NCBI GenBank assembly: GCA_964576615.1
Contig: CAZNUU010000002.1
Coordinates: 27,428 to 91,427 of the forward strand
DNA: 64,000 nt
Direction: 5' to 3'
Source: an uncultured Candidatus Saccharibacteria bacterium
GTDB lineage: Bacteria > Patescibacteriota > Minisyncoccia > Phycocordibacterales > DATDWN01
Below, piece after piece: positions 8,037-39,659 of this stretch. A program made the translations under genes and the position numbers. Position 1 is the stretch's first letter, and each line of letters begins with the position of its first letter. The notes under the pieces were generated by a model that had not been told where the DNA came from, made no database searches, and worked only from the letters and a program-made list of their open reading frames with translations.

Positions 8037-8078
8037 AACCCCGTGCCGTGAAGCACGAGGCTCCACCTTACACGGGGT
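8037..8078 (-). terminator. Rho-independent terminator after the membrane-protein gene (accccgtg...cacggggt + T-run)
   Basis: GC stem with following T-run on the minus strand. Near-identical in architecture to the terminator at 10963-10991. Confidence 0.6.
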
Positions 8079-8458
8079 CAGAATTTCTTCACTGCGTTTG
8101 ATGCCTCGACGCTGTAGCCGCAGAGGAAGGCCAGGCCCAGAGCACGATCGCGGGCTTGATGCCAGCGGTGGATCTCTTTTTGGAGATCTTCCCAAGATTC
8201 GCTCCATCCAAGCATCTCCGTCATCCTGTCGCCAGGAAGATTGCCTTTCCGGTAGTTGTCGAAGTGGTTGTATGCCTGCCGGACTTTGTACTGCAGATCC
8301 TCCAGAACATCCGTGACCACAAGGTGAGGGAGATCCGGACCGTAAATCTTGCAGAACTCGATCGCGCAACGCTTTTCGAACGTTTTGCTATCGCGTTTCA
8401 AATACAGCGTGACAACAACCCCAAACACGAACCAGGCGGCAGCGATCAAATAGATCAT
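8078..8458 (-). CDS. Hypothetical small membrane protein (N-terminal TM, ~100 aa cytoplasmic domain), GC-rich cassette 1
   Basis: 126 aa, MIYLIAAAWFVFGVVVTLYL TM segment. Preceded by the conserved leader repeat C that ends in SD GATGAGGT. Confidence 0.5.
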   Translation of the reverse strand: MIYLIAAAWFVFGVVVTLYLKRDSKTFEKRCAIEFCKIYGPDLPHLVVTDVLEDLQYKVRQAYNHFDNYRKGNLPGDRMTEMLGWSESWEDLQKEIHRWHQARDRALGLAFLCGYSVEASNAVKKF

Positions 8459-8462
8459 ACGT

Positions 8463-8530
8463 TACCTCATCCAGGGTTCCAGCCCTGGCAACTCGCTGGG
8501 TCCTTCCCAACGATCTATCGGGACAATACC
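8463..8530 (-). promoter_or_regulatory. Conserved 5'-leader repeat family C, copy 1 (hairpin CAGGGCTGGAACCCTG overlapping SD)
   Basis: cctcatccagggttccagccctggcaactcgctgggtccttcccaacgatct. About 85% identical copy at 11373-11440, in the same position upstream of another small TM-protein gene. Confidence 0.6.
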
Positions 8531-8683
8531 ACTTTATGTATTATCAGTCAATATATTAGTTCAGAGGATTTTTGGTCGAGTTCAAGGCGCGAGTGAGCAA
8601 TGCGACCAAGCTGTATAGAAATACTGCGCGTGGAGCATGCGGAGCGAGCAACGCAGAAATCGGGCAAAAAGACCTGAACTAAT

Positions 8684-10933: not shown

Positions 10934-10962
10934 GGAATTTTATTTATTATAGCAAAAAGGAA

Positions 10963-10991
10963 AACCTCGTGCCCGGCAGAAACACGAGGTT
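10963..10991 (-). terminator. Rho-independent terminator (aacctcgtg...cacgaggtt + T-run on minus strand)
   Basis: Stem similar to the 8037-8078 terminator. A second cacgaggtt follows at 11001-11009. Confidence 0.55.
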
Positions 10992-11007
10992 CCCGCCAAA
11001 CACGAGG

Positions 11008-11367
11008 TTATTGAACGAATCTTGCCACCGTTTTGCCATAGCCATTGATCATGCCTATACCAATGGCTCGGTCAAGTCGGCGCTGGGCCTTCCTCACCCT
11101 TCTCTCGGCGTCCTTGAAGTTTGCCTCACATTTCGACTCGTAGACTTTATTGGCACTTGATTTCGCCTGGGCTAGAAAGGCCCGGCAGGTGTTCATCCAT
11201 TCACGCTCGTTATTGAGATCAGCAGTGATTCGGACGAGCCTCAGATCGATCTCGTAATCACCGAAGGACCCGAAGGCAGGGAGGAGAGACCAAAATCGGA
11301 GCGGGGGGATGTACGGCCAGAAAACAAATGCGAAGAATACGATCGGAAACACAATGCTCATACTCAT
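11008..11367 (-). CDS. Hypothetical small membrane protein, GC-rich cassette 2 (possible paralog of 8078-8458)
   Basis: Start set at MSMSIVFPIVFF (SD GAGGTG inside repeat C) by analogy with cassette 1. The track ORF extends through the leader only because no stop intervenes. Confidence 0.45.
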   Translation of the reverse strand: MSMSIVFPIVFFAFVFWPYIPPLRFWSLLPAFGSFGDYEIDLRLVRITADLNNEREWMNTCRAFLAQAKSSANKVYESKCEANFKDAERRVRKAQRRLDRAIGIGMINGYGKTVARFVQ

Positions 11368-11372
11368 ACAAC

Positions 11373-11440
11373 ACCTCATCCAGGGTTTCAGCCCCGGCAA
11401 CTCGCGGGGTTCTTCCTCGCGATCTGCAATAAACAATACT
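11373..11440 (-). promoter_or_regulatory. Leader repeat family C, copy 2
   Basis: cctcatccagggtttcagccccggcaactcgcggggttcttcctcgcgatct. Confidence 0.6.
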
Positions 11441-11461
11441 ACTTTTAACAAATACTGTCAA

Positions 11462-12151
11462 CTACTCCCAGCCTCGAGATTTTAGGGCCTTCTGTGCTGC
11501 CTCCTGTTCAGCCTCTTGTTTAGAATCGCCTTCGCCTGTCGCAATTAGATCTTTGCCTACGTAAACACCAACTGTAAATTTCTTTTTGTGATCTAAACCA
11601 GATTCCTTAACTGTTTTATAAACTGGAGTAATACCATCAAATTCTTGGGCTTTCTCTTGAAAAAGAGATTTGGCATCAATAAATTTTTTGCCAGAAATAA
11701 TATTATCTATGAGCGGAGTAAAATGCTTATGTATAAAATCTGTCGCAGTTTTTAAACCTTGATCAATATAAATTGCACCAATTAATGCCTCGAGAGCGTT
11801 TGCCAAAATATACTGCCTCGCCCGGCCAGTGTCTTTTGATTCGCCTTTTGATAATAAAAGATAATCTGACATTCCCAATTCCTTGGCAATTTCTGCACAG
11901 GTGTCTGCATTGACTAGAGCCGAACGATAAGCAGTTAAATCGCCTTCTGGTTTTGTTGGAAATTTTTTGTAGAGAAAATCTGTGGTCACAAGCTCCAAGA
12001 CAGCGTCGCCCAAAAATTCGAGGCGCTCATTATGCGAGAGTCCAGAATTTCTATTTTCGTTTATAAATGAACGATGAACAAAGGCTTGTTTTAAAACATC
12101 TTTATCTTTGAAATTTATACCTATTTTTTTTTCGAATTTTGAGTAATCCAT
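11462..12151 (-). CDS. rnc: Ribonuclease III
   Basis: ERLEFLGDAVLELV RNase III signature, C-terminal dsRBD. Confidence 0.9.
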   Translation of the reverse strand: MDYSKFEKKIGINFKDKDVLKQAFVHRSFINENRNSGLSHNERLEFLGDAVLELVTTDFLYKKFPTKPEGDLTAYRSALVNADTCAEIAKELGMSDYLLLSKGESKDTGRARQYILANALEALIGAIYIDQGLKTATDFIHKHFTPLIDNIISGKKFIDAKSLFQEKAQEFDGITPVYKTVKESGLDHKKKFTVGVYVGKDLIATGEGDSKQEAEQEAAQKALKSRGWE

Positions 12152-13473: not shown

Positions 13474-13568
13474 GATTGGCTACTTTACATTATTAGTTAT
13501 AAAAAATCAAATCCTCCTTTACGAAAAACCACCGGCCGAAACCGGGGTCTGCCTCGTGAAATATCGCT

Positions 13569-14009
13569 TTATTTCACGAGGCCAAAATACTTGAGTGTCT
13601 CCAGAAGGCCGGGTTGGTGAGACCGGCACACCGAAACCTGAGCCCTGGTTCGACTCACCCATTCCGGCGGCAGGATGATTTCCGTACCATCTCGAATGGG
13701 TTTGTCTCGAAGCTGACCTTCGAAATCGGAATCCTGGAAAACGAAAAAGGTTTTCGGCTGACCACGATCGACCACGCTGAGTTCCGTAAGTGGTACAGCT
13801 TTTTCCTTGAGCCGGCGGCCAGTTTCGTCTCTGGTCTCTCGAGCTGCTGTTCCCCTCTTGGTTTGATCCTTCTTACTCCTCATTCCCCCCGGAAAGCCCA
13901 CTTTCTCAGGGAAACGAGGGTTATCCGGTATACTCTTCTGAACGAGGAGTTCGAGGGATTGATCTCGCCCCCTTACAGTCACAATCCCAGCCCACCACTT
14001 CTTTCGCAT
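13569..14009 (-). CDS. Nudix hydrolase (GC-rich, foreign-looking codon usage)
   Basis: 146 aa, Nudix box AARETRDETGR, SD AGGAGAG, own GC-stem terminator at 13545-13590. Confidence 0.6.
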   Translation of the reverse strand: MRKKWWAGIVTVRGRDQSLELLVQKSIPDNPRFPEKVGFPGGMRSKKDQTKRGTAARETRDETGRRLKEKAVPLTELSVVDRGQPKTFFVFQDSDFEGQLRDKPIRDGTEIILPPEWVSRTRAQVSVCRSHQPGLLETLKYFGLVK

Positions 14010-14063
14010 GACGCTCTCCTGTATTTACAGTACCACACCACCTTGAATTAGTAAATAGACAGT

Positions 14064-14657
14064 TTATTGGGCCATATTAAAGCTTTTTCTGTGAATTTCT
14101 GATAAGCCGTGTTTTCTGATAAGAGACTTGTGTTTTTTTGTTCCGTATCCCTTGTGAAGTTCAAACTTATATAATGGATATTTCTGTGCTTCTTTTTTCA
14201 TGAGTTCATCCCGAGAGACTTTTGCCAAAATAGAAGCCCAGGAAATTATTTTTTCTTTCTCATCACCCTTAATAATTGTTTTTTGATTATTAAACCTGAG
14301 TGGGGCTTTTAGAGAACCGTCAAGCAAAATTTTACTTGCCGAATTGATTTTTAAATTCTCAATTGAATTTTCAATCCCCTTCTTTATTGCAAACGAAAGC
14401 CCCCTCTTGTCTATTATTTTGTTTGAGATATGTGATATTGAATAATTAATTTTTCCCTCTTTTTTTAATTTATTTAAAATCGCTGCAAACTTTTCTCTCT
14501 CTGGACTTTTGAGTTTTTTGCTATCTATTCCTCTTGCTGGAAGATTTTTTGATTTTTTTAATTTTGTATAGGTACTCTGTAAGCACGCAAGTGCACAGAC
14601 TGTAACAGGACCCGCCAGAGGGCCTCGACCAACTTCATCGACACCAACTATGATCAT
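14064..14657 (-). CDS. rnhB: Ribonuclease HII
   Basis: MIIVGVDEVGRGPLAGPV catalytic N-terminus. Confidence 0.9.
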   Translation of the reverse strand: MIIVGVDEVGRGPLAGPVTVCALACLQSTYTKLKKSKNLPARGIDSKKLKSPEREKFAAILNKLKKEGKINYSISHISNKIIDKRGLSFAIKKGIENSIENLKINSASKILLDGSLKAPLRFNNQKTIIKGDEKEKIISWASILAKVSRDELMKKEAQKYPLYKFELHKGYGTKKHKSLIRKHGLSEIHRKSFNMAQ

Positions 14658-14713
14658 AATTAGATTTTAAAACACGAAGGCCGCCGACGCTAGAAGCGTG
14701 GCGGCCAAAGAAG

Positions 14714-15280
14714 CTAGAGACCAGAGTCCCGAAACGACTGCCCGAAACCGTCTACCCCAAGAGCCTTTCGCGCAAGTGGCAGAAACGGGTCCGGGTGTAA
14801 TTCAGCCTGAGCACTTGGAGTTTCGAGTGGGGGTGTGGGCTCGAATACAACCCGAGCGGTTTCCCCCAGCGTCTCGCGCACGATCCGGTTTGGATTGAGC
14901 TCGGCCTCAGTCATTTCTCGAGGTGGATCGATCTTCACCACAACCGCACGGGCCGCCTCCGTCACGTCATGGACGAACTTCGGATCCCAGTTGTTGTTGT
15001 AGGTATCGAGCATCACACCGTCCTTCTGGGCACGGCAACGGTTCACGACCTCGACCAGCCGGACAAGTTCCGCGATCGGTAGAACAGAGACCATCCTCTC
15101 GACCAGCAAGAGCTCGTCGAGAATATCACTGAGCTTGGCATGAACATCGCCGGTTCGGTTGAGGTCTTTTTTCCCTTCCGGAGTGGCGATCACACCTTCG
15201 TTCAGGCTCTCGGCGAGCCCTTCGACCAGTACCCGCAGGTTGCGAGTACCGGTTTGCAGATTGTTGCACAGCCAATTCAT
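14714..15280 (-). CDS. Hypothetical protein, GC-rich cassette
   Basis: 188 aa, SD GGGAGGT 5 nt before ATG, GC3-rich, no recognisable motif. Confidence 0.4.
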   Translation of the reverse strand: MNWLCNNLQTGTRNLRVLVEGLAESLNEGVIATPEGKKDLNRTGDVHAKLSDILDELLLVERMVSVLPIAELVRLVEVVNRCRAQKDGVMLDTYNNNWDPKFVHDVTEAARAVVVKIDPPREMTEAELNPNRIVRETLGETARVVFEPTPPLETPSAQAELHPDPFLPLARKALGVDGFGQSFRDSGL

Positions 15281-15524
15281 TTGAACCTCCCGACCCTGAA
15301 CAGGTCAACGGCTTTTCTTACGATCTCGGACTGAGACACGGTATCCAGAAGATGCGTGATGTAATGAACACCAGGCACCCCAGCCACATACCATGCCATT
15401 GCACTTAGAATGTGTCGCACATCGCCTCCATAGTTAACTTGTTTTCCGTTTTCATTATGGTGAATATAGCTATGCTTGTCAAAGTCAGATTCCAAAAATT
15501 GCGTGATATAATTCAAAAAATTCT

Positions 15525-18773: not shown

Positions 18774-18784
18774 ACGTTTCATAG

Positions 18785-18923
18785 GTAATCTCCGAAAAAA
18801 CACTCGGCTTCTCCAGCGGAAGCCTCGTTCGGTACTCGACGCCTCGTTGTCAAGAGCCTCTCGCTTGCTCGAGGTCATTGACAACGCCATGCTCGGCGTC
18901 TGCGTATGTTTTTCGGAGATTAC
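18785..18923. repeat. Large nested palindrome immediately downstream of dnaE
   Basis: Perfect 15-bp terminal inverted repeat gtaatctccgaaaaa / tttttcggagattac. Inner palindromes gacgcc..ttgtcaa / ttgacaa..ggcgtc and ggcttc/gaagcc. Confidence 0.7.
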
Positions 18924-19041
18924 TTCTTACACTTGTGGTTAGGGAAGCATGTGCTATGTTTTAAAATAATGAATTTGGTTAAAAGTTGTAATAAGAAAAG
19001 ATCTCGCACTGACACGATACGAGATCTTGTCTTGTGCGAGA

Positions 19042-19287
19042 TCAACAGTTGAGGAGAAGGAACGGGACCGTATTTTCTCCCTCCGGGACATCGCCAATGA
19101 GGTCACGAGTAAAGTACGGAAATGTCCCCTTACCACCCGCAGGAGGTTTTTGTTCGCCATTACGGGTCAAACGATACCGACCACGTGCGAGGATACTTCC
19201 GTCGCCCAGATCGATTTCGTCACCTGTCGCGAGATCGCGATCGACTTCTACGAGCAACCAGAGCCCAGGTCCGATAATTGCTTGCAT
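19042..19287 (-). CDS. Hypothetical protein, GC-rich cassette 3
   Basis: 81 aa. SD AAAGGA. Hairpin terminator at 18996-19031. Overlapping ORFs in all frames (GC-rich), so the call is weak. Confidence 0.3.
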   Translation of the reverse strand: MQAIIGPGLWLLVEVDRDLATGDEIDLGDGSILARGRYRLTRNGEQKPPAGGKGTFPYFTRDLIGDVPEGENTVPFLLLNC

Positions 19288-19380
19288 GAGTGTTGTCCTT
19301 TCTAGGGCATAGATTACTAGAAACTAAACGAGTGTCAAATGAAAATGCGCCGGGGATTCCGGCGCATTGGGTACGAGCGA

Positions 19381-19623
19381 TTACGATTGACTTCGCTCGT
19401 GTTCAAGCATTTTCCGAGTTTGTCGAAACCTCGAATTCAAGACTCGGTCGCTGGACTTCCTCACATAGACCATGGAAGAAGCAGCAAGAACACAGACGGT
19501 TGCAGGGATGAAGTAGTAAACATTGCGGGAAAACCACCCTGTCGCAAAAAAGATTGCGCACAGAACCCAGGTCAGGCTCTCGGTGTTTTGCCACCATCGG
19601 CTCGACCAAATCGTTTTGTTCAT
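19381..19623 (-). CDS. Hypothetical 2-TM membrane protein, GC-rich cassette 3
   Basis: Perfect SD AAAGGAGG 4 nt before ATG. Terminator aatgcgccgg..ccggcgcatt at 19345-19372. Confidence 0.5.
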   Translation of the reverse strand: MNKTIWSSRWWQNTESLTWVLCAIFFATGWFSRNVYYFIPATVCVLAASSMVYVRKSSDRVLNSRFRQTRKMLEHERSQS

Positions 19624-19673
19624 TTCGCCTCCTTTACAAATAAATCAAAATTATTTTTCGATGTCAATACAAT

Positions 19674-19701
19674 GTTGACAAAATCAATAGAAAAATTAAT
19701 A
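19674..19701 (+). promoter_or_regulatory. Sigma70-like promoter (TTGACA-16/17-TAATAT) for the thrS leader
   Basis: ttgacaaaatcaatagaaaaattaatat. The -10 ends ~7 nt before the leader-peptide ATG. Confidence 0.55.
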
Positions 19702-19707
19702 TAAAAT

Positions 19708-19752
19708 TATGAAATCCATAAGAACAACAACCACAACTAGACTGACCCTTTA
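19708..19752 (+). CDS. Thr-codon-rich leader peptide (MKSIRTTTTTRLTL) upstream of thrS
   Basis: ATG AAA TCC ATA AGA ACA ACA ACC ACA ACT AGA CTG ACC CTT TAG. Five consecutive Thr codons, stop overlaps the antiterminator segment. Confidence 0.55.
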
Positions 19753-19779
19753 GTTCGAAGGTTGTTTTTCCTCAAACAA

Positions 19780-19813
19780 ATTAACGGCCCTCGAACAGAG
19801 GGTCGTTAATTTT
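19780..19813 (+). terminator. Attenuator terminator in the thrS leader (12-bp stem + TTTTT)
   Basis: ttaacggccctc-gaaca-gagggtcgttaa-ttttt. Upstream segment agttcgaagg (19751-19760) can pair with ccctcgaac as an antiterminator. Confidence 0.6.
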
Positions 19814-19853
19814 TGGCTAGATTATTAAACTAAAACAAGATAACATTAAATAT

Positions 19854-21113
19854 ATGTCGGAACATAAAACAAGAGAAAATAACGGCGAGATGGACGAGAA
19901 TGACCATCGAGTGCTAGGTAAGGAACTGGATCTATTCACTTTCTCAGATACAGTTGGCAAAGGCCTACCCCTTTATACCGAAAAGGGCGCGGCTATTCGT
20001 CGTGAGCTAGAAAGATTTATCATCGATGAAGAAATAAGACGCGGCTACAAACACGTTTCGACTCCGGATATAGCAAAACTAGATCTGTACGAGAAATCTG
20101 GTCACTATCCCTATTACAAGGATTCAATGTATGCGCCAATTGAAATTGATGAGGAGAAATTCATGCTGCGGCCAATGACTTGCCCCCATCATTTTGAACT
20201 TTATCTATCAAGACCAAGAAGCTATCGTGAATTACCAATGCGCATCGCCGAAGTAGCCAAACTTTATCGCTACGAAAATTCTGGCAATCTTGCGGGATTG
20301 GTACGGGTCAGATCTTTCTGTCTCGCCGATGGTCACATTATTTGTGCCGACAAAGATCAAGCTAGAGAAGAAGTAAAAGCCGCGCTTAGACTTATTGAAG
20401 ATGTTGTAGGAGTTTTTGGTTTGAAGAAAAATGAGGATTTTTGGTACAGACTTTCTTTGGGCGACCGCAAAGATGATAACAAATACTACAAAGATGACGC
20501 GGCTTGGGATGAGGCAGAGGGAGTCTTGCGAGAAGTTTTACAGAATCAGGATGTAAGATTTGAAGAGGCTGAAAACGAGGCTGCCTTTTACGGACCGAAG
20601 ATAGACATCCAGATGAAAGACGCTCGCGGCCAGGAAAATACTGCCTTTACTGTGCAATACGATTTCGTTATGCCAAAAAGATTCCACTTGGTTTACGTCG
20701 ACAAAGATGGCAAAGAGAAACTAGCGATAGTAATTCACCGTTCTTCCATTGGCGCAACCGAAAGAATAATGGCTTTCCTCATTGAAAAATACCGAGGTAA
20801 CTTTCCTCTCTGGCTGTCCCCTGTTCAAGTTAAAGTTATTCCGGTTCGAGAAAATCATAACGCTAAAGCTCGAGAAATTTTTGAAATGCTCCGCGATGCT
20901 GGAATTCGTGTTGAAATAGATGAAGCGGATGAAAATCTCGGCTCCAAAGTTCGTGATGCCAAAGTAAATAAAATTCCTTACTGGGTTGTTATTGGCGACA
21001 AAGAAGTTGAGTCTGGCAAACTTGCTTTGGAATCTCGCGATGGTAAAAAATCTGAACTTGATTCAGAAGAGCTTCTCGCCAAACTCCAAAAAGAAATTAA
21101 AGAAAAGAAATAA
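19854..21113 (+). CDS. thrS: Threonyl-tRNA synthetase, short form (catalytic core + anticodon-binding domain only)
   Basis: 419 aa. DHRVLGKELDLF and class II motifs. Lacks the TGS/editing N-terminal ~240 aa. Confidence 0.85.
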   Translation: MSEHKTRENNGEMDENDHRVLGKELDLFTFSDTVGKGLPLYTEKGAAIRRELERFIIDEEIRRGYKHVSTPDIAKLDLYEKSGHYPYYKDSMYAPIEIDEEKFMLRPMTCPHHFELYLSRPRSYRELPMRIAEVAKLYRYENSGNLAGLVRVRSFCLADGHIICADKDQAREEVKAALRLIEDVVGVFGLKKNEDFWYRLSLGDRKDDNKYYKDDAAWDEAEGVLREVLQNQDVRFEEAENEAAFYGPKIDIQMKDARGQENTAFTVQYDFVMPKRFHLVYVDKDGKEKLAIVIHRSSIGATERIMAFLIEKYRGNFPLWLSPVQVKVIPVRENHNAKAREIFEMLRDAGIRVEIDEADENLGSKVRDAKVNKIPYWVVIGDKEVESGKLALESRDGKKSELDSEELLAKLQKEIKEKK

Positions 21114-21119
21114 GCGAAG

Positions 21120-21150
21120 AGCCCGCCAGAGGTTGCTGACGGGCTCATGA
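21120..21150. terminator. Bidirectional terminator between convergent thrS and the zinc-finger gene
   Basis: gagcccgccagaggttgctgacgggctc hairpin. Confidence 0.55.
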
Positions 21151-21158
21151 ATGTACTC

Positions 21159-21650
21159 TTAGGAGTGGAAACGGTCAGTAGGCGGAAGAAGACGGCTGAG
21201 CTGCTCCCGACGTTGCCTGAGTTCGTCGATCTCGCGTTCCGCAGCCTTTCCTCGCTGGACAGTCTCATCCTTGTCGGAAATGAGTTGATCAGTCCGTAGC
21301 AGTTCGTGCCGCCGCGCCTGGACCAGACCAAGTTTCAGGACATGGTCCAGGGCTTCAATGACACGGTAGATCGAGACTCTCCCCCCATCTGTAGGCAGAC
21401 TGCTCTGGACGGCCCCTAGTACGGAACCTGCGCTTACAGATTGCCATCTGGTGATGAGCTCGAGATCATCTGCCCGAACCCTGACGACACTGTCCAGACC
21501 CATCTCGAATGTGAGTTCAGTCGTGAGAAGGATGTCCTTGCAGACTTCCACACACTCATCGCAGATGTAAACCACCGGGCCAGAGATGAGCTTCTTCACA
21601 TCACACTGTGCCTTGTTGCAGAACGAACAACGAAGAATCTCTTTTGTCAT
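21159..21650 (-). CDS. Stand-alone ClpX-type zinc-binding domain protein with unknown GC-rich C-terminal domain
   Basis: [34 protein letters not shown] matches zf-C4_ClpX. No AAA+ domain. Start set to M7 (SD GAGAGGTG) because -10 TATAGT / -35 TTGACA on the minus strand place the TSS downstream of M1. Confidence 0.55.
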
Positions 21651-21701
21651 GCACACCTCTCTGTGCATGACTATACAAAAATATTTATAACTGTCAATAA
21701 A

Positions 21702-28203: not shown

Positions 28204-28920
28204 TTATGCCTCTTTTGGTCTCTTTAGTTGACCTGCCTTATAACTTTCTGCCACTTTTTTTAAAATAAACTCAATCGAGGTTCGAGAAGCGTCATTGCCT
28301 GGGATTGGAAACTCAACTTCGTTTAAATTATTGTCTGTGCCACAAAGCGCAATTGTTGGTATATTCATTTTTTTTGCTTCGGTAACTGCAATTGACTCTT
28401 TTTTACTATCTACTACAAAAACCGCTTCAGGTAATGACCTCATTGGGGTAAGACCTGAGAAAAATTCTTTCAATTTTTCTATTTCTCGGTCGATGAGAAG
28501 TCTTTCCTTTTTAGTATATTTGGATAACTCACCTTTTTCTCTTTGTGAAACAAGAGATTCTAATTTCTCAACTCTTTTTCTAATTTGAGGAAAGTTAGTT
28601 AAAGTCCCTCCAATAAATCTACCGGCAACGTAAGGTTGGCTAATAGATTCAGCAGTTGTAGATATTGCTGCTTTGGCTTCACTTTTGCCACTGATAAACA
28701 AGATAGTTGCGTTTCTTGAACCGAGACTTTCTATAAATTCTAAAGCCTTGCTTAAGGCATCCTTAGTCTTTTCAAGATCAAATATTTCGATTTTATTTTT
28801 TATACCGTAAAGAAATGGTTTTGCACTTGGGTGTCTCCTGGATTTAACAAAACCAAAGTGTGAGCCAGCCGAAAAAAGGCCGTCGACCAGTGTATTCCCG
28901 TTGTTATTTGATTTTTCCAT
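28204..28920 (-). CDS. rpsB: 30S ribosomal protein S2
   Basis: LFSAGSHFGFVKSRRHPSAKPF S2 N-terminus. Confidence 0.9.
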   Translation of the reverse strand: MEKSNNNGNTLVDGLFSAGSHFGFVKSRRHPSAKPFLYGIKNKIEIFDLEKTKDALSKALEFIESLGSRNATILFISGKSEAKAAISTTAESISQPYVAGRFIGGTLTNFPQIRKRVEKLESLVSQREKGELSKYTKKERLLIDREIEKLKEFFSGLTPMRSLPEAVFVVDSKKESIAVTEAKKMNIPTIALCGTDNNLNEVEFPIPGNDASRTSIEFILKKVAESYKAGQLKRPKEA

Positions 28921-29005
28921 GCAGGGATGAGTCTAACAAAAATATAAGAGAGGCGCAACCTAAAATTGAAGTGCCTCGGGGGTAAGCCGAGGCACTCGAG
29001 ATACG

Positions 29006-29377
29006 TCAAGGGTTCGCAGCTGGATACGTGCGCACAGAACTCAAGGGATCGTAGCAGCCATATACCCGGAGCTCGTCACCACTTTGATCGTTGAACCAAA
29101 CTCTTCCATAGCATTCCTTGTAGCTGGCCTTCTCGTAGAGCACGACATCTGCCCCCGACTGCGACAGGTTTCTGACTTCCAGAATCCTGAAGACCTCGGT
29201 CTTACTCCACGGTGGCCGCGTCGGGATAGATTTCTCGGCCCGAGCTTTCCACTTGTTGAAGTTACTAGCCACCTTCTCCTGCTCGGCAAGAGCCTGAGAA
29301 TCAGCCCGCTTCAGCCCCGAGAGGTATCCTCCTCCAAACAGCATGACGATAGCAAGAACAACCCAAAACCTCCGCAT
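29006..29377 (-). CDS. Hypothetical membrane-anchored protein, GC-rich cassette 4
   Basis: Start set to ATG MRRFWVVLAIVML with SD AGGAGGTG at ideal spacing (track start is GTG 6 nt upstream). GC-stem terminator at 28962-28992. Confidence 0.5.
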   Translation of the reverse strand: MRRFWVVLAIVMLFGGGYLSGLKRADSQALAEQEKVASNFNKWKARAEKSIPTRPPWSKTEVFRILEVRNLSQSGADVVLYEKASYKECYGRVWFNDQSGDELRVYGCYDPLSSVRTYPAANP

Positions 29378-29419
29378 ATCCACCTCCTGTTAAAGAGAAT
29401 ACGTGTTAAAAATTCCCTG

Positions 29420-30361
29420 TCAAGAATTGCTCATCGCCTCAATAATCGGCTCTATTCTGCCATCTAGTACACCTTCGATATTGTGCCAAGATTGTTTTAT
29501 TCTGTGGTCGGTAACCCTATCCTGTAAAACGTTATACGTCCGTATCTTCTCGGATCTGTCTGCCGTGCCTATCTGGCTTTTCCTATCTGCAGAATACTTA
29601 GCAGATTCCTCTTCGTCTTTCATCATTTGAAGCTTCGCCAGAAGAATCGACATTGCCTTCTCACGATTTTTGAGCTGACTCCTTTCCGCAGTTGAGCGAA
29701 CATCAATTCCAGTTGGCTTGTGAATAATTCTTACGGCTGTCTCTACTTTGTTTACGTTCTGTCCCCCCGCCCCGCCAGAGCGCGATGTCTCAATCTCCAA
29801 GTCAGACGGTGAGACAACAATATTTGTTTTTTTTCTAATAGGTAAAATAGCAACTGTAGCAGTTGAGGTATGAACTCTTCCGATTTTTTCTGTCACTGGC
29901 ACCCTCTGAACCCGGTGAACTCCTGTCTCAAAGCGCAAACTTTTGTAAACATCCTTCCCTCTTATTTCAAATGAAGCTTCTTTATATCCCCCTGTGGAAC
30001 TAAGGGACTCGTTTATAAGATTTACTGTCCAGCCTTTGCCTTCGGCATAACGTCGATACATATGAGCTAATTCCCCTGCAAAAAGCGAGGCTTCTTCTCC
30101 CCCCGCGCCGGCTCTAACTTCTAAAACTATCTCATTTGGAAATTCTTCTTCCTTTTCGTCTTCTTTAACAATATCCTGCATCTGGTTTAAAATAGCTTCT
30201 TTTTGTAAAGCCAAATCCGCAAGCTCTGTCTGTGCAAGCTCCATTAAACTCGAGTCTCCATCGAGCATTTTTTTGGTCTCACCTTCCTTTTTCTCGAGCT
30301 CTTTATAACTTTGAGCTAGGTAGGAGGTTTTTGGATTTTGTAAGTATTTTTCCAGGTCCAT
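29420..30361 (-). CDS. prfA: Peptide chain release factor 1
   Basis: GGQ motif [11 protein letters not shown] and PVT (PxT) tripeptide [17 protein letters not shown]. Confidence 0.85.
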
Positions 30362-33910: not shown

Positions 33911-34015
33911 ATATTTAAATTATACACCAAATATAGACGTTCCGTCTGGCAAATTAATACAAAAATTTGTTGTCTAAAGATTTTTCATTATAATGTTTCT
34001 TAGAGGAGGAGGCTA

Positions 34016-34756
34016 ATGCGACATACGCAACGCGGCCTCTTCCACGGAAGAGGCAAAAGAAACTTCAACGGCTGGCTGCCTGGGATGGACACCAAGATCA
34101 AAGACGGAGGGCGGTTTGGGGAAGGCTTGATCCAACATCTTTTGGGAGGAAGGCAGAGTGAGTCAGCTAGCTCGGGAGAGGCAGACATCTGGCGAGAGGA
34201 CCTTGATCTCGGTATCGAGGTTAAGACTCACTCAAACACAGATCCTCTGCGGATCCCGGAGAGTCAACTCGACTCACATCTGGATATCTGTCAGTGCGGC
34301 TTCCCGTATTCCTATTGCTGGTATGCCATCGTCAAATACAGAAACATTAGACGAGGAGATGGATACCTCTTTCAAGCCAGTTCTGGATCACAAGAGAAAA
34401 CAGAACTGTTCTTGAAAGAAAACACGACAGCGGTTTATGTTCTCGACATCTCTGTCGTCGACGCAATCAGGAAATTTCGGGGAAACTGTATCCGAATGTG
34501 GCGAAGCCACGAGCATCAAGCCGCCGTTCGGATCAGGTGGAGCTACTTGCGAGAATTCGAAGTCTCACCCAAAGAAGCCTTGGCGCTCCTAAACCTAGAC
34601 CCTCGAAACTATCGAGCGGAGGCAAGGAGTGTACAGGTTTCTTTAGGCGGCACCTTCATGCAGTTCCCCTTCGTTCTCTGCGTTCATCGGAAATCGCTGG
34701 GAAGAGCTCACAGAAAAAAACAGCTCAACCTCTTTCCGATAGAGGAGAAAAGCTAA
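34016..34756 (+). CDS. Hypothetical protein, GC-rich single-gene cassette 5 (possible PD-(D/E)xK-type nuclease motif D..EVK)
   Basis: SD GAGGAGGAGG, GC3 ~60% against ~35% for neighbours, EDLDLGIEVKT motif. Followed by a strong terminator. Confidence 0.4.
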   Translation: MRHTQRGLFHGRGKRNFNGWLPGMDTKIKDGGRFGEGLIQHLLGGRQSESASSGEADIWREDLDLGIEVKTHSNTDPLRIPESQLDSHLDICQCGFPYSYCWYAIVKYRNIRRGDGYLFQASSGSQEKTELFLKENTTAVYVLDISVVDAIRKFRGNCIRMWRSHEHQAAVRIRWSYLREFEVSPKEALALLNLDPRNYRAEARSVQVSLGGTFMQFPFVLCVHRKSLGRAHRKKQLNLFPIEEKS

Positions 34757-34761
34757 ACACC

Positions 34762-34800
34762 TCACTTGCTTGCGTAAGTGAGGTGTTCGATTTTTTCTTA
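34762..34800. terminator. Rho-independent terminator (aacacctcactt-gcttgcgt-aagtgaggtgtt + T-run), bidirectional
   Basis: 12-bp stem, TTTTTT downstream. Lies between convergent genes. Confidence 0.7.
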
Positions 34801-37549: not shown

Positions 37550-37555
37550 AAGCGA

Positions 37556-37588
37556 ACGCCCGTGCAGTGTTAGTGCACGGGCGTAGAA
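37556..37588. terminator. Bidirectional terminator cgcccgtgcagtgttagtgcacgggcg
   Basis: Perfect 10-bp GC stem between convergent genes. Confidence 0.65.
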
Positions 37589-37591
37589 GAA

Positions 37592-38110
37592 CTAGGCCGA
37601 CTTTTTTCCTCTGGGTAAATAGGCGCGATAGTCCCCATCCTTTACCTGAACGAGCCTTGGGAAGGTTGAAGCTAGATTTTTGAAATTGAGGAAACTACGG
37701 TATGCAGTGGCCTCCTCATCAACCAACTGGGCCTTCACCCTATCAAAATCGTCCTTAGTCCTGCCTAAAGCAGCAAGTCCTCCTTGTCTGAAACGCTCGA
37801 GGGTGTCGACGGCATCTTGATAACTTTGGGCCTTTAGACCCAACTGTTGATCAACCTCTTCTTGAAGAACCTCCTGCCTCGAGAAACAGTTGTAAAAAAC
37901 CTCCATCTCCCGCCAGTTTCCATACGCGCGGTCGAGCTCACTTCTCTTTCTCAGGATGTAGAGAGAAAGGGAAGCTAGGGCGCCGCCGAGAAAAGCAACG
38001 AACGCGAGCAAGATGTACGGGTGAACCAAGTTCCTCTCCGGTCCGGCAAGCCGAACCATGAGCATGGATGAGACGAGCGCGCTGAGCACGAATAAGCCAG
38101 TGTAGGCCAT
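37592..38110 (-). CDS. Hypothetical 2-TM membrane protein with ~110 aa soluble domain, GC-rich cassette 6
   Basis: 172 aa, GC3-rich. Possible distant similarity to 8078-8458 and 11008-11367 (TM + W/E/Y..A..F..R motifs) is weak. Confidence 0.45.
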   Translation of the reverse strand: MAYTGLFVLSALVSSMLMVRLAGPERNLVHPYILLAFVAFLGGALASLSLYILRKRSELDRAYGNWREMEVFYNCFSRQEVLQEEVDQQLGLKAQSYQDAVDTLERFRQGGLAALGRTKDDFDRVKAQLVDEEATAYRSFLNFKNLASTFPRLVQVKDGDYRAYLPRGKKSA

Positions 38111-38263
38111 AACTCACCTATCTTCCCCACAACTCGGGTAATCCAAGTTGGTAGGACATCGTCCATGGGGAGTTTTCTCCCTTAATTAAAATCTTTTAAA
38201 GACAAAAGTCAATTGCTATCCGTTATATAAAACTTCAGCGCGGATTTCTCCGCGCCGAAAAGT

Positions 38264-38614
38264 CTAGTACATCTCTTCCCTGATTCTAGAGAGCTCGAGG
38301 ATCACGGAAGGATCCGTGATTTTCTGGAATCGTGGAATAGTTTGTCCGTCCTTCTCCACTTCCCCCATCCACATCTCGAGTGGTCTGCCGTCGAAACAAG
38401 GCACGCCAAGCTCTTTTGAGGCCTTGTAGACCGACGACTCATAAAGTGGGATGTAACTCACGAAGTGCTCTTCCCCAGGGCGTGGATGATCTTCTGTGTG
38501 AAATATTACGCCAATAACCTCGTAGGCGTAGTTGTTCACGGGACCTGCGGGGTCATGCTTGTAGTGATAGTAGAACCCTACTTCTGGAACTTGCTTGGGC
38601 ATTGGTAGCGCCAT
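38264..38614 (-). CDS. Hypothetical protein, GC-rich cassette 6
   Basis: Start set to MALPMPKQVPEVGFYYHYKHD with SD GAGAGGAGAG. The upstream part of the track ORF overlaps tkt. Terminator gcgcgga-tttc-tccgcgc at 38232-38255. Confidence 0.4.
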   Translation of the reverse strand: MALPMPKQVPEVGFYYHYKHDPAGPVNNYAYEVIGVIFHTEDHPRPGEEHFVSYIPLYESSVYKASKELGVPCFDGRPLEMWMGEVEKDGQTIPRFQKITDPSVILELSRIREEMY

Positions 38615-38663
38615 AACTCTCCTCTCTAAAATTAATCTAGCTAATTTAGTAATTAAAAACAAG

Positions 38664-39659
38664 TCAAACTTTTCTTGACATAACTTTCTTTGCCGCAGAG
38701 AGAATGTGCGACTCACCCATGCCGTAATGCTCCAAAAGTTCCTCTTGCTTACCGGACTGTCCAAACTTGTCTTGCACCCCGATAAATTCGATCGGCACTG
38801 GGAAATTTGCTGACAGAACTTCTGAAACTGCACTCCCGAGCCCGCCCGCGACTTGATGCTCCTCAACTGTTACTACGGCCCTGCAAGATTTGGCTAAATC
38901 AAGTAAAGATTTTGAATCAATTGGTTTTATCGTGGAGATATTTAAAACCTTGGCATGTATACCTTCTTTTTTTAATTGCTCTGCAACTTTTAATGCCTTA
39001 TAAACGAGAGCACCAGTTGCTACAATTCCCACATCAGCTTTTTCGTCTTTGTCCCCATAATAAATTTGTGCCTTGCCAAAATCGAACGGTGATTCTTCTG
39101 TTGTAATAACTGGAGTTTTTTCACGAGCAAGACGAATATAAACAGGTTTATTTAGTGTAGCTGCAACAATTGTTGCTTTCTTTGCTTCAATAGAATCACA
39201 CGGCGAGATGACGATCATGTTTGGCATAACTCGGGTAATAGCAATGTCCTCAATAGCTTGGTGAGTTCCACCATCGGCACCAACGGAGACCCCCGCGTGA
39301 GAACCCGCAATTATCACTGGCCTATCGTTATACGCAATCGTCGTTCTTATCTGTTCCCAATTTCTACCAGGTGAAAACATGGCGTAACTTGAGATGTAAG
39401 GAATCTTGCCCATTGCCGCCATACCACTTGCAACTGCAGCTAAGTTTTGTTCTGCGACACCAATTTGAATAAAACGCTCCGGGAATTTGTCTGCAAATAA
39501 ATTCATTTTGGTCGATTCGGTTAAATCTGCGCAAAGTCCTACAACATTTTTATTTTGTTCACCCACTTCCAAAAGTCCTTGGCCAAATCCAGCCCTAATG
39601 GGCACTTGCTCTACGCCATCAAACAATTTCGGATTTAATTTTTGATTTGTGTTTAGCAT
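38664..39659 (-). CDS. Transketolase, C-terminal subunit (split transketolase)
   Basis: 331 aa pyrimidine-binding/C-terminal domains. Confidence 0.9.
   Translation of the reverse strand: MLNTNQKLNPKLFDGVEQVPIRAGFGQGLLEVGEQNKNVVGLCADLTESTKMNLFADKFPERFIQIGVAEQNLAAVASGMAAMGKIPYISSYAMFSPGRNWEQIRTTIAYNDRPVIIAGSHAGVSVGADGGTHQAIEDIAITRVMPNMIVISPCDSIEAKKATIVAATLNKPVYIRLAREKTPVITTEESPFDFGKAQIYYGDKDEKADVGIVATGALVYKALKVAEQLKKEGIHAKVLNISTIKPIDSKSLLDLAKSCRAVVTVEEHQVAGGLGSAVSEVLSANFPVPIEFIGVQDKFGQSGKQEELLEHYGMGESHILSAAKKVMSRKV

Follow-up and report, generated by a model that had tools for sequence, protein, structure and literature searches.

We found that the gene at 21159..21650 on the minus strand of the window (the whole 64-kb stretch of DNA analysed here) encodes what is, judged by its sequence, a genuine stand-alone ClpX-type zinc-binding domain (ZBD) protein, in which the ZBD is followed by a C-terminal region without relatives. 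The gene comprises 163 codons and a TAA stop, with its ATG at 21650; a longer version of the ORF, from an ATG at 21668, is also possible. The same 163-aa product (P0001) is predicted in the NCBI and Logan assemblies. Neither a signal peptide nor a transmembrane segment was evident, and the 163-aa protein would be cytoplasmic. Stand-alone ZBD proteins already form a large class that is annotated but uncharacterised, and this protein joins it as a singleton.

The ZBD spans residues 7-41 (21528..21632, minus strand) and contains Cys8, Cys11, Cys30, and Cys33. It matches the Pfam family PF06689 (zf-C4_ClpX) with E=1e-15 and 57.8 bits, against a gathering cut-off of 27 bits, and this was the sole family returned by a Pfam scan of the protein at E<=1. 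A PDB sequence search matched the ClpX ZBD entries 2ds5 and 1ovx (E about 1e-12). Compared with the solved E. coli ZBD, 24 of 38 residues are identical (about 63%), and the CSFC...CDEC zinc ligands and the hydrophobic positions are kept. ClpX and ZBD proteins of the database share 70-81% identity with the domain, and the four cysteines are invariant in an alignment of ClpX and stand-alone relatives (alignment A1). The N-terminal ClpX C4 zinc ribbon claimed in a preliminary description of this DNA was thus borne out.

[quoted passage not shown] In ClpX, however, the ZBD is followed by a linker and the AAA+ module, whereas here an unrelated tail of 120 aa takes their place. The AAA+ module (Walker A/B, pore-1 GYVG loop, IGF loop) is absent, and the protein ends at residue 163. 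It scored only 42 bits against the NCBIfam clpX equivalog (TIGR00382 / NF003745), whose cut-off is 370.75 bits, and the match was confined to model positions 5-48. When two ClpX fragments containing the ZBD and AAA regions, including the Walker A region, were used in tblastn, they matched only at 21650-21528, and no AAA+ remnant was found downstream in any frame. A frameshifted clpX was rejected on the same result, as these fragments had no match in other frames. The stop codon lies 45 bp from the convergent thrS gene. We also found that clpX, clpP, and known adaptor genes are missing from the 64-kb window, a ClpP query giving no match within it. These results agree with the earlier statements that the protein has no AAA+ module, that thrS lies convergently next to it, and that it is not the 5' fragment of a disrupted clpX.

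The orphan C-terminal region covers residues 44-163 (21162..21521, minus strand) and is rich in Leu and Arg. A phmmer search of 1.84 billion (1.84e9) representative proteins returned no homologue of the tail at E<=0.001, a word-indexed search of 5.8 billion (5.8e9) proteins returned no relative, and the whole protein is a singleton in both sets. Against Pfam at E<=10, the tail gave nothing but a marginal coiled-coil match (E=0.034). It had no match in PHROGs, PADLOC, or PDB sequences, nor in phages, plasmids (tblastn), or metagenome and viral contigs, and the anti-phage defence models of PADLOC gave 0 families at E<=1. The preliminary description had found no known domain in this part of the protein, which these searches corroborate.

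It had also suggested structure prediction for the tail. AlphaFold2, run without an alignment, produced models of low to moderate confidence (pLDDT 52.6 for the full-length protein; pLDDT 67.5 and pTM 0.50 for the tail alone). The predicted fold of the tail consists of a beta-hairpin, two short helices, and a long helical hairpin, and its last helices reach a pLDDT of about 90. A Foldseek search of the tail against the PDB gave nothing at E<1, and its best match (E=1.3) is meaningless, so that no fold match was obtained. The coiled-coil-like end proposed earlier holds in part. A long helix is predicted at residues 94-154 (pLDDT up to about 90), but a coiled coil is not established because the heptad pattern is weak, with hydrophobic residues at 10 of 18 a/d positions in the best register.

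The tail looks like a real coding sequence and not random read-through. Pro, Gly, Cys, and Trp together account for 11 of its residues, where random stop-free translations matched in base composition have 26.2 +/- 4.5 (p about 4e-4), and it has an excess of helix formers (p about 0.006). The probability that a frame of such length and composition would stay open by chance is about 0.01, and the GC contents at the three codon positions (GC1/GC2/GC3) are 0.72/0.42/0.59. We also considered a structured RNA in place of a coding tail and rejected it. Rfam was empty at gathering thresholds and at E<=1, the z-score of the fold was only -2.24, and codon periodicity and amino-acid composition favour coding.

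The gene was previously described as having its own promoter and Shine-Dalgarno site, and both were recovered. A sigma-70-type promoter-like site, TTGACA-16 nt-TATAGT, is located at 21670..21697 on the minus strand, agrees with the consensus at 11 of 12 positions, and begins 4 nt past the stop codon of gyrB (21704-21702). Three promoter-like sites were found in the region against 0.8 expected, and TTGACA-16-TATAGT is the only such site across the 64-kb window. The 30 nt from 21697 to 21668 are 83% identical to positions 2903-2932 of L002, the locus of the closest relative, where they likewise lie downstream of gyrB. Judged from the promoter position, transcription likely starts at about 21664-21661, and such a start would therefore exclude the upstream ATG at 21668 and support the ATG at 21650. 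As read from the sequence, a Shine-Dalgarno-like GAGAGG (21656..21661, minus strand) ends 5 nt upstream of the latter.

This Shine-Dalgarno site forms the spacer of a perfect inverted repeat at 21646..21671, which has 10-nt arms and a 6-nt spacer and reads GTCATGCACA-GAGAGG-TGTGCATGAC on the minus strand. The start codon lies in the 3' arm, and the -10 hexamer runs into the repeat with its last 2 nt. Its arms are 100% complementary, and the RNA fold has a dG of -17.1 kcal/mol and a z-score of -5.75, with 0 of 200 shuffles as good. The palindrome is unique in the window, was matched in none of 100 shuffles even when 3 mismatches were permitted, and lies exactly where the similarity to the promoter copy in the closest relative stops. 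It could be an operator or a hairpin masking the start codon. Its arms and spacer also have the geometry of a dimeric operator or a tyrosine-recombinase core site. As a repeated recombination site it was rejected, being unique in the window and having only single-arm chance matches in related loci.

An intrinsic-terminator-like element is located behind the gene at 21095..21146 (minus strand), with an 11-bp GC-rich stem (21146-21136 paired with 21129-21119), a 6-nt loop, and a U-rich run that reaches into the 3' end of thrS. The hairpin has a dG of -23.6 kcal/mol and a z-score of -4.96, with 0 of 200 shuffles as good; a promoter/terminator scan also partly recovered the element, as a weaker match. 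With these predicted signals, the gene has the appearance of a complete transcription unit that may be regulated.

The gene is located between the convergent genes gyrB and thrS in the genome of a bacterium that the relatives of gyrB assign to the Patescibacteria, in a Paceibacteria / Zambryskibacteria-like group. Genes for SMC, RNase III, NusB-NUDIX, RNase HII, dnaE, thrS, gyrB, pheS, and a GT2 glycosyltransferase make up the neighbourhood. Neither an integrase nor a transposase was found nearby, and no direct or inverted repeats flank the gene. The thrS gene itself (19854-21113) is of a short form; its 419-aa product consists of the class II catalytic core and the anticodon-binding domain only, without N-terminal TGS or editing domains. 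The thrS products of relatives are likewise short (413-461 aa), and the short form is therefore a trait of the lineage.

The base composition of the gene sets it apart from the native genes, whose GC3 is 0.27-0.45. GC1/GC2/GC3 of the whole gene are 0.65/0.39/0.60, and 200-nt windows over it reach a GC content of 0.54-0.585, compared with 0.41 for the whole window. The preliminary description had called the C-terminus GC-rich. This is correct, but the feature is not confined to the tail, as GC3 is 0.62 in the ZBD part and 0.59 in the tail. This foreign GC3 is uniform, and the gene therefore arrived whole from a GC-richer source. By the same sequence evidence, it is not derived from a resident clpX.

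To place the gene among its relatives, we compared 80 related Patescibacteria loci, and it was absent from all of them. The convergence of gyrB and thrS is retained in 46 of the 80, with spacers of -8 to 5,674 bp that differ in content. One spacer (L004) holds a P-loop protein and a PspC-like protein, another (L011) an epimerase and a PspC-like protein, two (L028 and L046) are empty, and GC-rich islets directly follow gyrB in four loci (L024, L029, L037, L069). In the closest relative, gyrB is 94% identical, the gene is missing, and the 30-nt promoter copy is followed by GC-rich DNA unlike it. These comparisons indicate that the gene looks like a recent single-gene acquisition in a variable spacer. 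A homologous GC-rich ORF of about 70 aa, which carries ...EEGGSWHPACNFE(Q/H)VS, was observed in the gyrB-thrS spacers of L037 (5172-5384, minus strand) and L024 (6373-6645, minus strand), and this spot therefore repeatedly hosts small GC-rich genes.

About 10 single-gene GC-rich islets (GC 0.50-0.57, GC3 0.52-0.65) are scattered over the window, the present gene among them. They are located at 4101-4475, 7526-8600, 10951-11550, 13501-14075, 14660-15520, 18976-19650, 21114-21701 (the present gene), 28876-29475, 33976-34800, and 37551-38625. Nearly all of the islet proteins are small and have no Pfam or PHROG match, and several have N-terminal transmembrane segments; the exceptions are a NUDIX protein (13569-14009) and a DUF1653 protein (38264-38866). 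No match to the islet genes was found in the related loci, where the native neighbours are conserved; these loci extend over flanks of about 6 kb, and only some of the islets fall inside them. The one islet gene tested against the databases, g34016 (34016-34756), is a singleton. A 52%-identical relative of another, g7679, lies about 1.1 kb downstream of gyrB in L063, at the same hot spot. Between the ZBD protein and the other islet proteins or islet DNA there is no paralogy and no shared sequence. Accessory genes that are GC-rich instead of AT-rich are unusual.

Two further observations concern these islets. The 1.1-kb gap between dnaE and thrS (18780-19850) seems at first to be ORF-less and holds two small GC-rich genes on the minus strand. 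The gene at 19623-19381 encodes 80 aa with two predicted TM helices and has the Shine-Dalgarno site AAAGGAGG and a terminator at 19368-19344; the gene at 19287-19042 encodes 81 aa and has a terminator at 19028-18998. Each has a Shine-Dalgarno site and a terminator-like hairpin, and neither gave a Rfam match, a Pfam match, or a counterpart in relatives. The GC-rich membrane orphans at 8078-8458 and 11008-11451 (both minus strand) share their flanking DNA, while their coding parts have diverged. The shared flanks (8455-8516 and 11364-11425; 8027-8078 and 10953-11008) contain a promoter-like site, a conserved, hairpin-containing 5' leader about 60 nt long (...GCGAGTTGCCnGGGCTGnAACCCTGGATGAGGT...), and a terminator that is likewise conserved, and they may represent a cis-regulatory leader or a cassette family.

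Stand-alone copies of the ClpX zinc finger are numerous in genomes and phages, and most matches to the ZBD were proteins of 89-131 aa without an AAA+ module. One family of about 113 aa, named 'ClpX C4-type zinc finger protein' at NCBI, has at least 510 database members. It occurs in Pseudomonadota and Acidobacteriota (alignment A4) and consists of the ZBD and an HTH-like C-terminus. Like the present protein, its members carry the stand-alone ZBD at the very N-terminus. In an hhalign comparison (99% probability), the alignment of the two covered residues 3-53, so that their similarity outlasts the ZBD by about 10 residues, and it went no further. The linker of this family, ILEATPxxFxGW (ILEATPxxFAGWD), is matched partially, whereas its conserved helix and HTH-like segment VSWxxIGxxLGVSRQAAWERFS are absent. 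Beyond the ZBD, the only similarity is a 7-residue coincidence (IDELRQR/IDELRRR, E=0.048).

Several stand-alone ZBD proteins (P0002, P0005, P0006, P0008) have a second, C-terminal CxxC...CxxC ribbon, and the ZBD is also present in several PHROG families (phrog_6797, phrog_12435, phrog_5259). These tandem-ribbon proteins and phage families resemble the present protein in being small, in lacking the AAA+ module, and in their ZBD identity of 46-81%. It differs from them in its longer helical tail and in the lack of any Cys beyond residue 37. In the searchable literature, we came across no work on the function of any stand-alone ZBD protein and nothing usable on ClpXP in Patescibacteria. The mentions of clpX and clpP in one paper (PMC10768705) bear locus tags of the host XH001 and belong to results on host genes, not on TM7x.

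We also compared the protein with other small regulators. A YacG-type gyrase inhibitor was considered for its adjacency to gyrB and gave no match, the Pfam scan having returned PF06689 only (the YacG family is presumably Pfam PF03884). Since the gyrB-thrS spacer holds unrelated genes in relatives, the adjacency looks incidental. The idea of an anti-sigma factor, raised in the preliminary description, was not supported. No anti-sigma signature was detected by Pfam, including the HxxxCxxC domain of zinc-binding anti-sigma (ZAS) factors, and the neighbours are gyrB and thrS, with no adjacent ECF sigma factor. By analogy, the anti-adaptors IraD, IraM, and IraP, which act on RssB, and the free XB peptide of SspB would follow the same logic of competition between ZBD and adaptor that we propose below. 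However, these bind the adaptor or mimic its tail, none of them is a free copy of the ZBD, and they have no sequence relationship to the present protein.

In ClpX, the ZBD dimerises constitutively, and some substrates dock on it as adaptors do. It forms a dimer to which adaptors such as SspB and RssB bind, RssB-mediated delivery is lost when it is deleted, and delivery is inhibited by a free docking peptide that competes (PMC7226468). Such a docking domain in free form readily suggests itself as a natural competitor or tether at the N-domain of ClpX. We tentatively propose, as a reading that is quite possible though short of probable, that the present ZBD dimerises with itself or with the ClpX N-domain and binds docking motifs, so that the protein would be a competitor or anti-adaptor, or would tether a ligand of its tail. 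The gene would have entered the gyrB-thrS spacer as a single-gene insert and would serve as an independently transcribed accessory gene. Because of the high identity to ClpX ZBDs, the domain would be expected to form such dimers, with itself or with the N-domain of a ClpX, and to bind the same short docking motifs as ClpX does. The protein might then withhold adaptors and substrates from ClpXP, or it might bring a partner bound to its tail to ClpX in an adaptor-like manner. Zinc binding, dimerisation, binding of adaptors or substrates, and a link to ClpXP are all inferred from the sequence. The adaptor mimic and the ClpXP decoy suggested in the preliminary description are hypotheses of the same standing. 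In favour of the competitor or tether are a ZBD near that of bona fide ClpX, the docking role of that domain, the full expression cassette, the protein-like tail, the foreign GC3, and the absence of the gene from all 80 related loci. Against it are the lack of clpX, clpP, or an adaptor gene in the 64-kb window, the singleton status, a tail with neither homologue nor fold match, structure models of low to moderate confidence, and a searchable literature in which no stand-alone ZBD protein was found to be functionally characterised. As a singleton, the protein offers no evidence of purifying selection.

Other explanations have to be weighed against this one. The protein could be a young chimeric orphan with little or no function, in which a foreign clpX or stand-alone ZBD gene contributed a ZBD-coding 5' piece that was captured along with unrelated GC-rich coding DNA, the ORF persisting as it is recent and neutral. 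This is possible but rather unlikely. It would account for a singleton among 5.8e9 and 1.84e9 proteins and for its absence from the closest relative, where the same promoter copy precedes other GC-rich DNA, and other GC-rich islets are orphans too, such as g34016. But the tail is non-random in its codon-position GC contents, its depletion of Pro, Gly, Cys, and Trp, and its enrichment of helix formers, and the gene has a dedicated promoter, Shine-Dalgarno site, palindrome, and terminator. Moreover, Patescibacteria genomes are streamlined, which argues against the retention of junk. We regard it as improbable that the protein is instead a zinc-ribbon transcriptional autoregulator unrelated to ClpXP, whose dimer would bind the 10-6-10 palindrome over the transcription start and ribosome-binding site of its own gene. 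The palindrome does lie exactly between the -10 hexamer and the start codon, and in other proteins the ZBD is combined with DNA-binding parts. It is joined to the HTH-like segment 'GVSRQAAWERFS' in the family of about 113 aa, and cyanobacterial sigma-70 factors carry zf-C4_ClpX as an accessory domain (PMC11119718). However, neither Pfam nor Foldseek detected a DNA-binding domain in the tail, and the hhalign match to the ZBD-HTH family ends at residue 53. To our knowledge, the ClpX ZBD itself does not bind DNA. It is equally possible that the palindrome acts in the mRNA, as a hairpin covering the ATG when transcripts read through from gyrB, or that it is the site of another regulator.

The two remaining explanations concern the origin of the gene. 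One is that a resident clpX was disrupted and left this gene as its 5' remnant, for which the sole support is the strong similarity of residues 1-45 to ClpX N-termini. This reading is very improbable and already effectively refuted by the lack of AAA+ similarity downstream in any frame, the convergent thrS after 45 bp, a GC3 of 0.62 that differs from native genes, syntenic relatives that have no clpX at the same position, and the gene's own promoter and terminator. The abrupt shift in GC content might also suggest an assembly chimera, with reads of a GC-richer organism spliced into a Patescibacteria contig. We consider this extremely improbable, since an independent Logan assembly (run SRR12313480) contains a 1,172-bp contig that is 100% identical and covers the 3' end of gyrB, the whole gene, and 177 codons of thrS. 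Furthermore, native stop codons bound the insert precisely, its AT-rich promoter is of native style and common to the closest relative, and about 10 similar islets with native genes on either side are present on the same contig.

Returning to the competitor or tether, a more specific version may be formulated, which we regard as a long shot. A captured free docking domain of ClpX, joined to a newly evolved helical tail, would act as a decoy or anti-adaptor that reprograms the substrate choice of ClpXP. The Patescibacteria cell would likely be an episymbiont with a minimal proteostasis kit, and the ClpXP in question might be its own or that of its host organism. The gene would use a resident promoter at a hot spot of cassette swapping and would be controlled via the palindrome at its ribosome-binding site. 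If true, this decoy or anti-adaptor reading would be the first functional assignment for the large stand-alone ClpX zinc-finger class. Any member testable in a standard ClpXP degradation assay would inform the whole class. The present protein is a poor model, being a singleton from an uncultivated organism with a tail that lacks relatives. It is mainly of value in illustrating how modular the ZBD is, and as an instance of the unusual GC-rich orphan islets in this Patescibacteria genome.

Lastly, we observed an element downstream of gyrB in the closest relative (L002, CAZQKP010000053.1). About 670 nt of GC-rich DNA at 2132-2800, with a GC content of up to 0.64, contain no ORF longer than 75 aa, are preceded by TTGACA-17-TATAGT, and have a GC hairpin at their end. 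Rfam gave no match to this DNA at E<=0.1, and no part of the window resembles it. Its minimum free energy is -262.5 kcal/mol with a z-score of -3.67, and it is a candidate for an uncharacterised large non-coding RNA.
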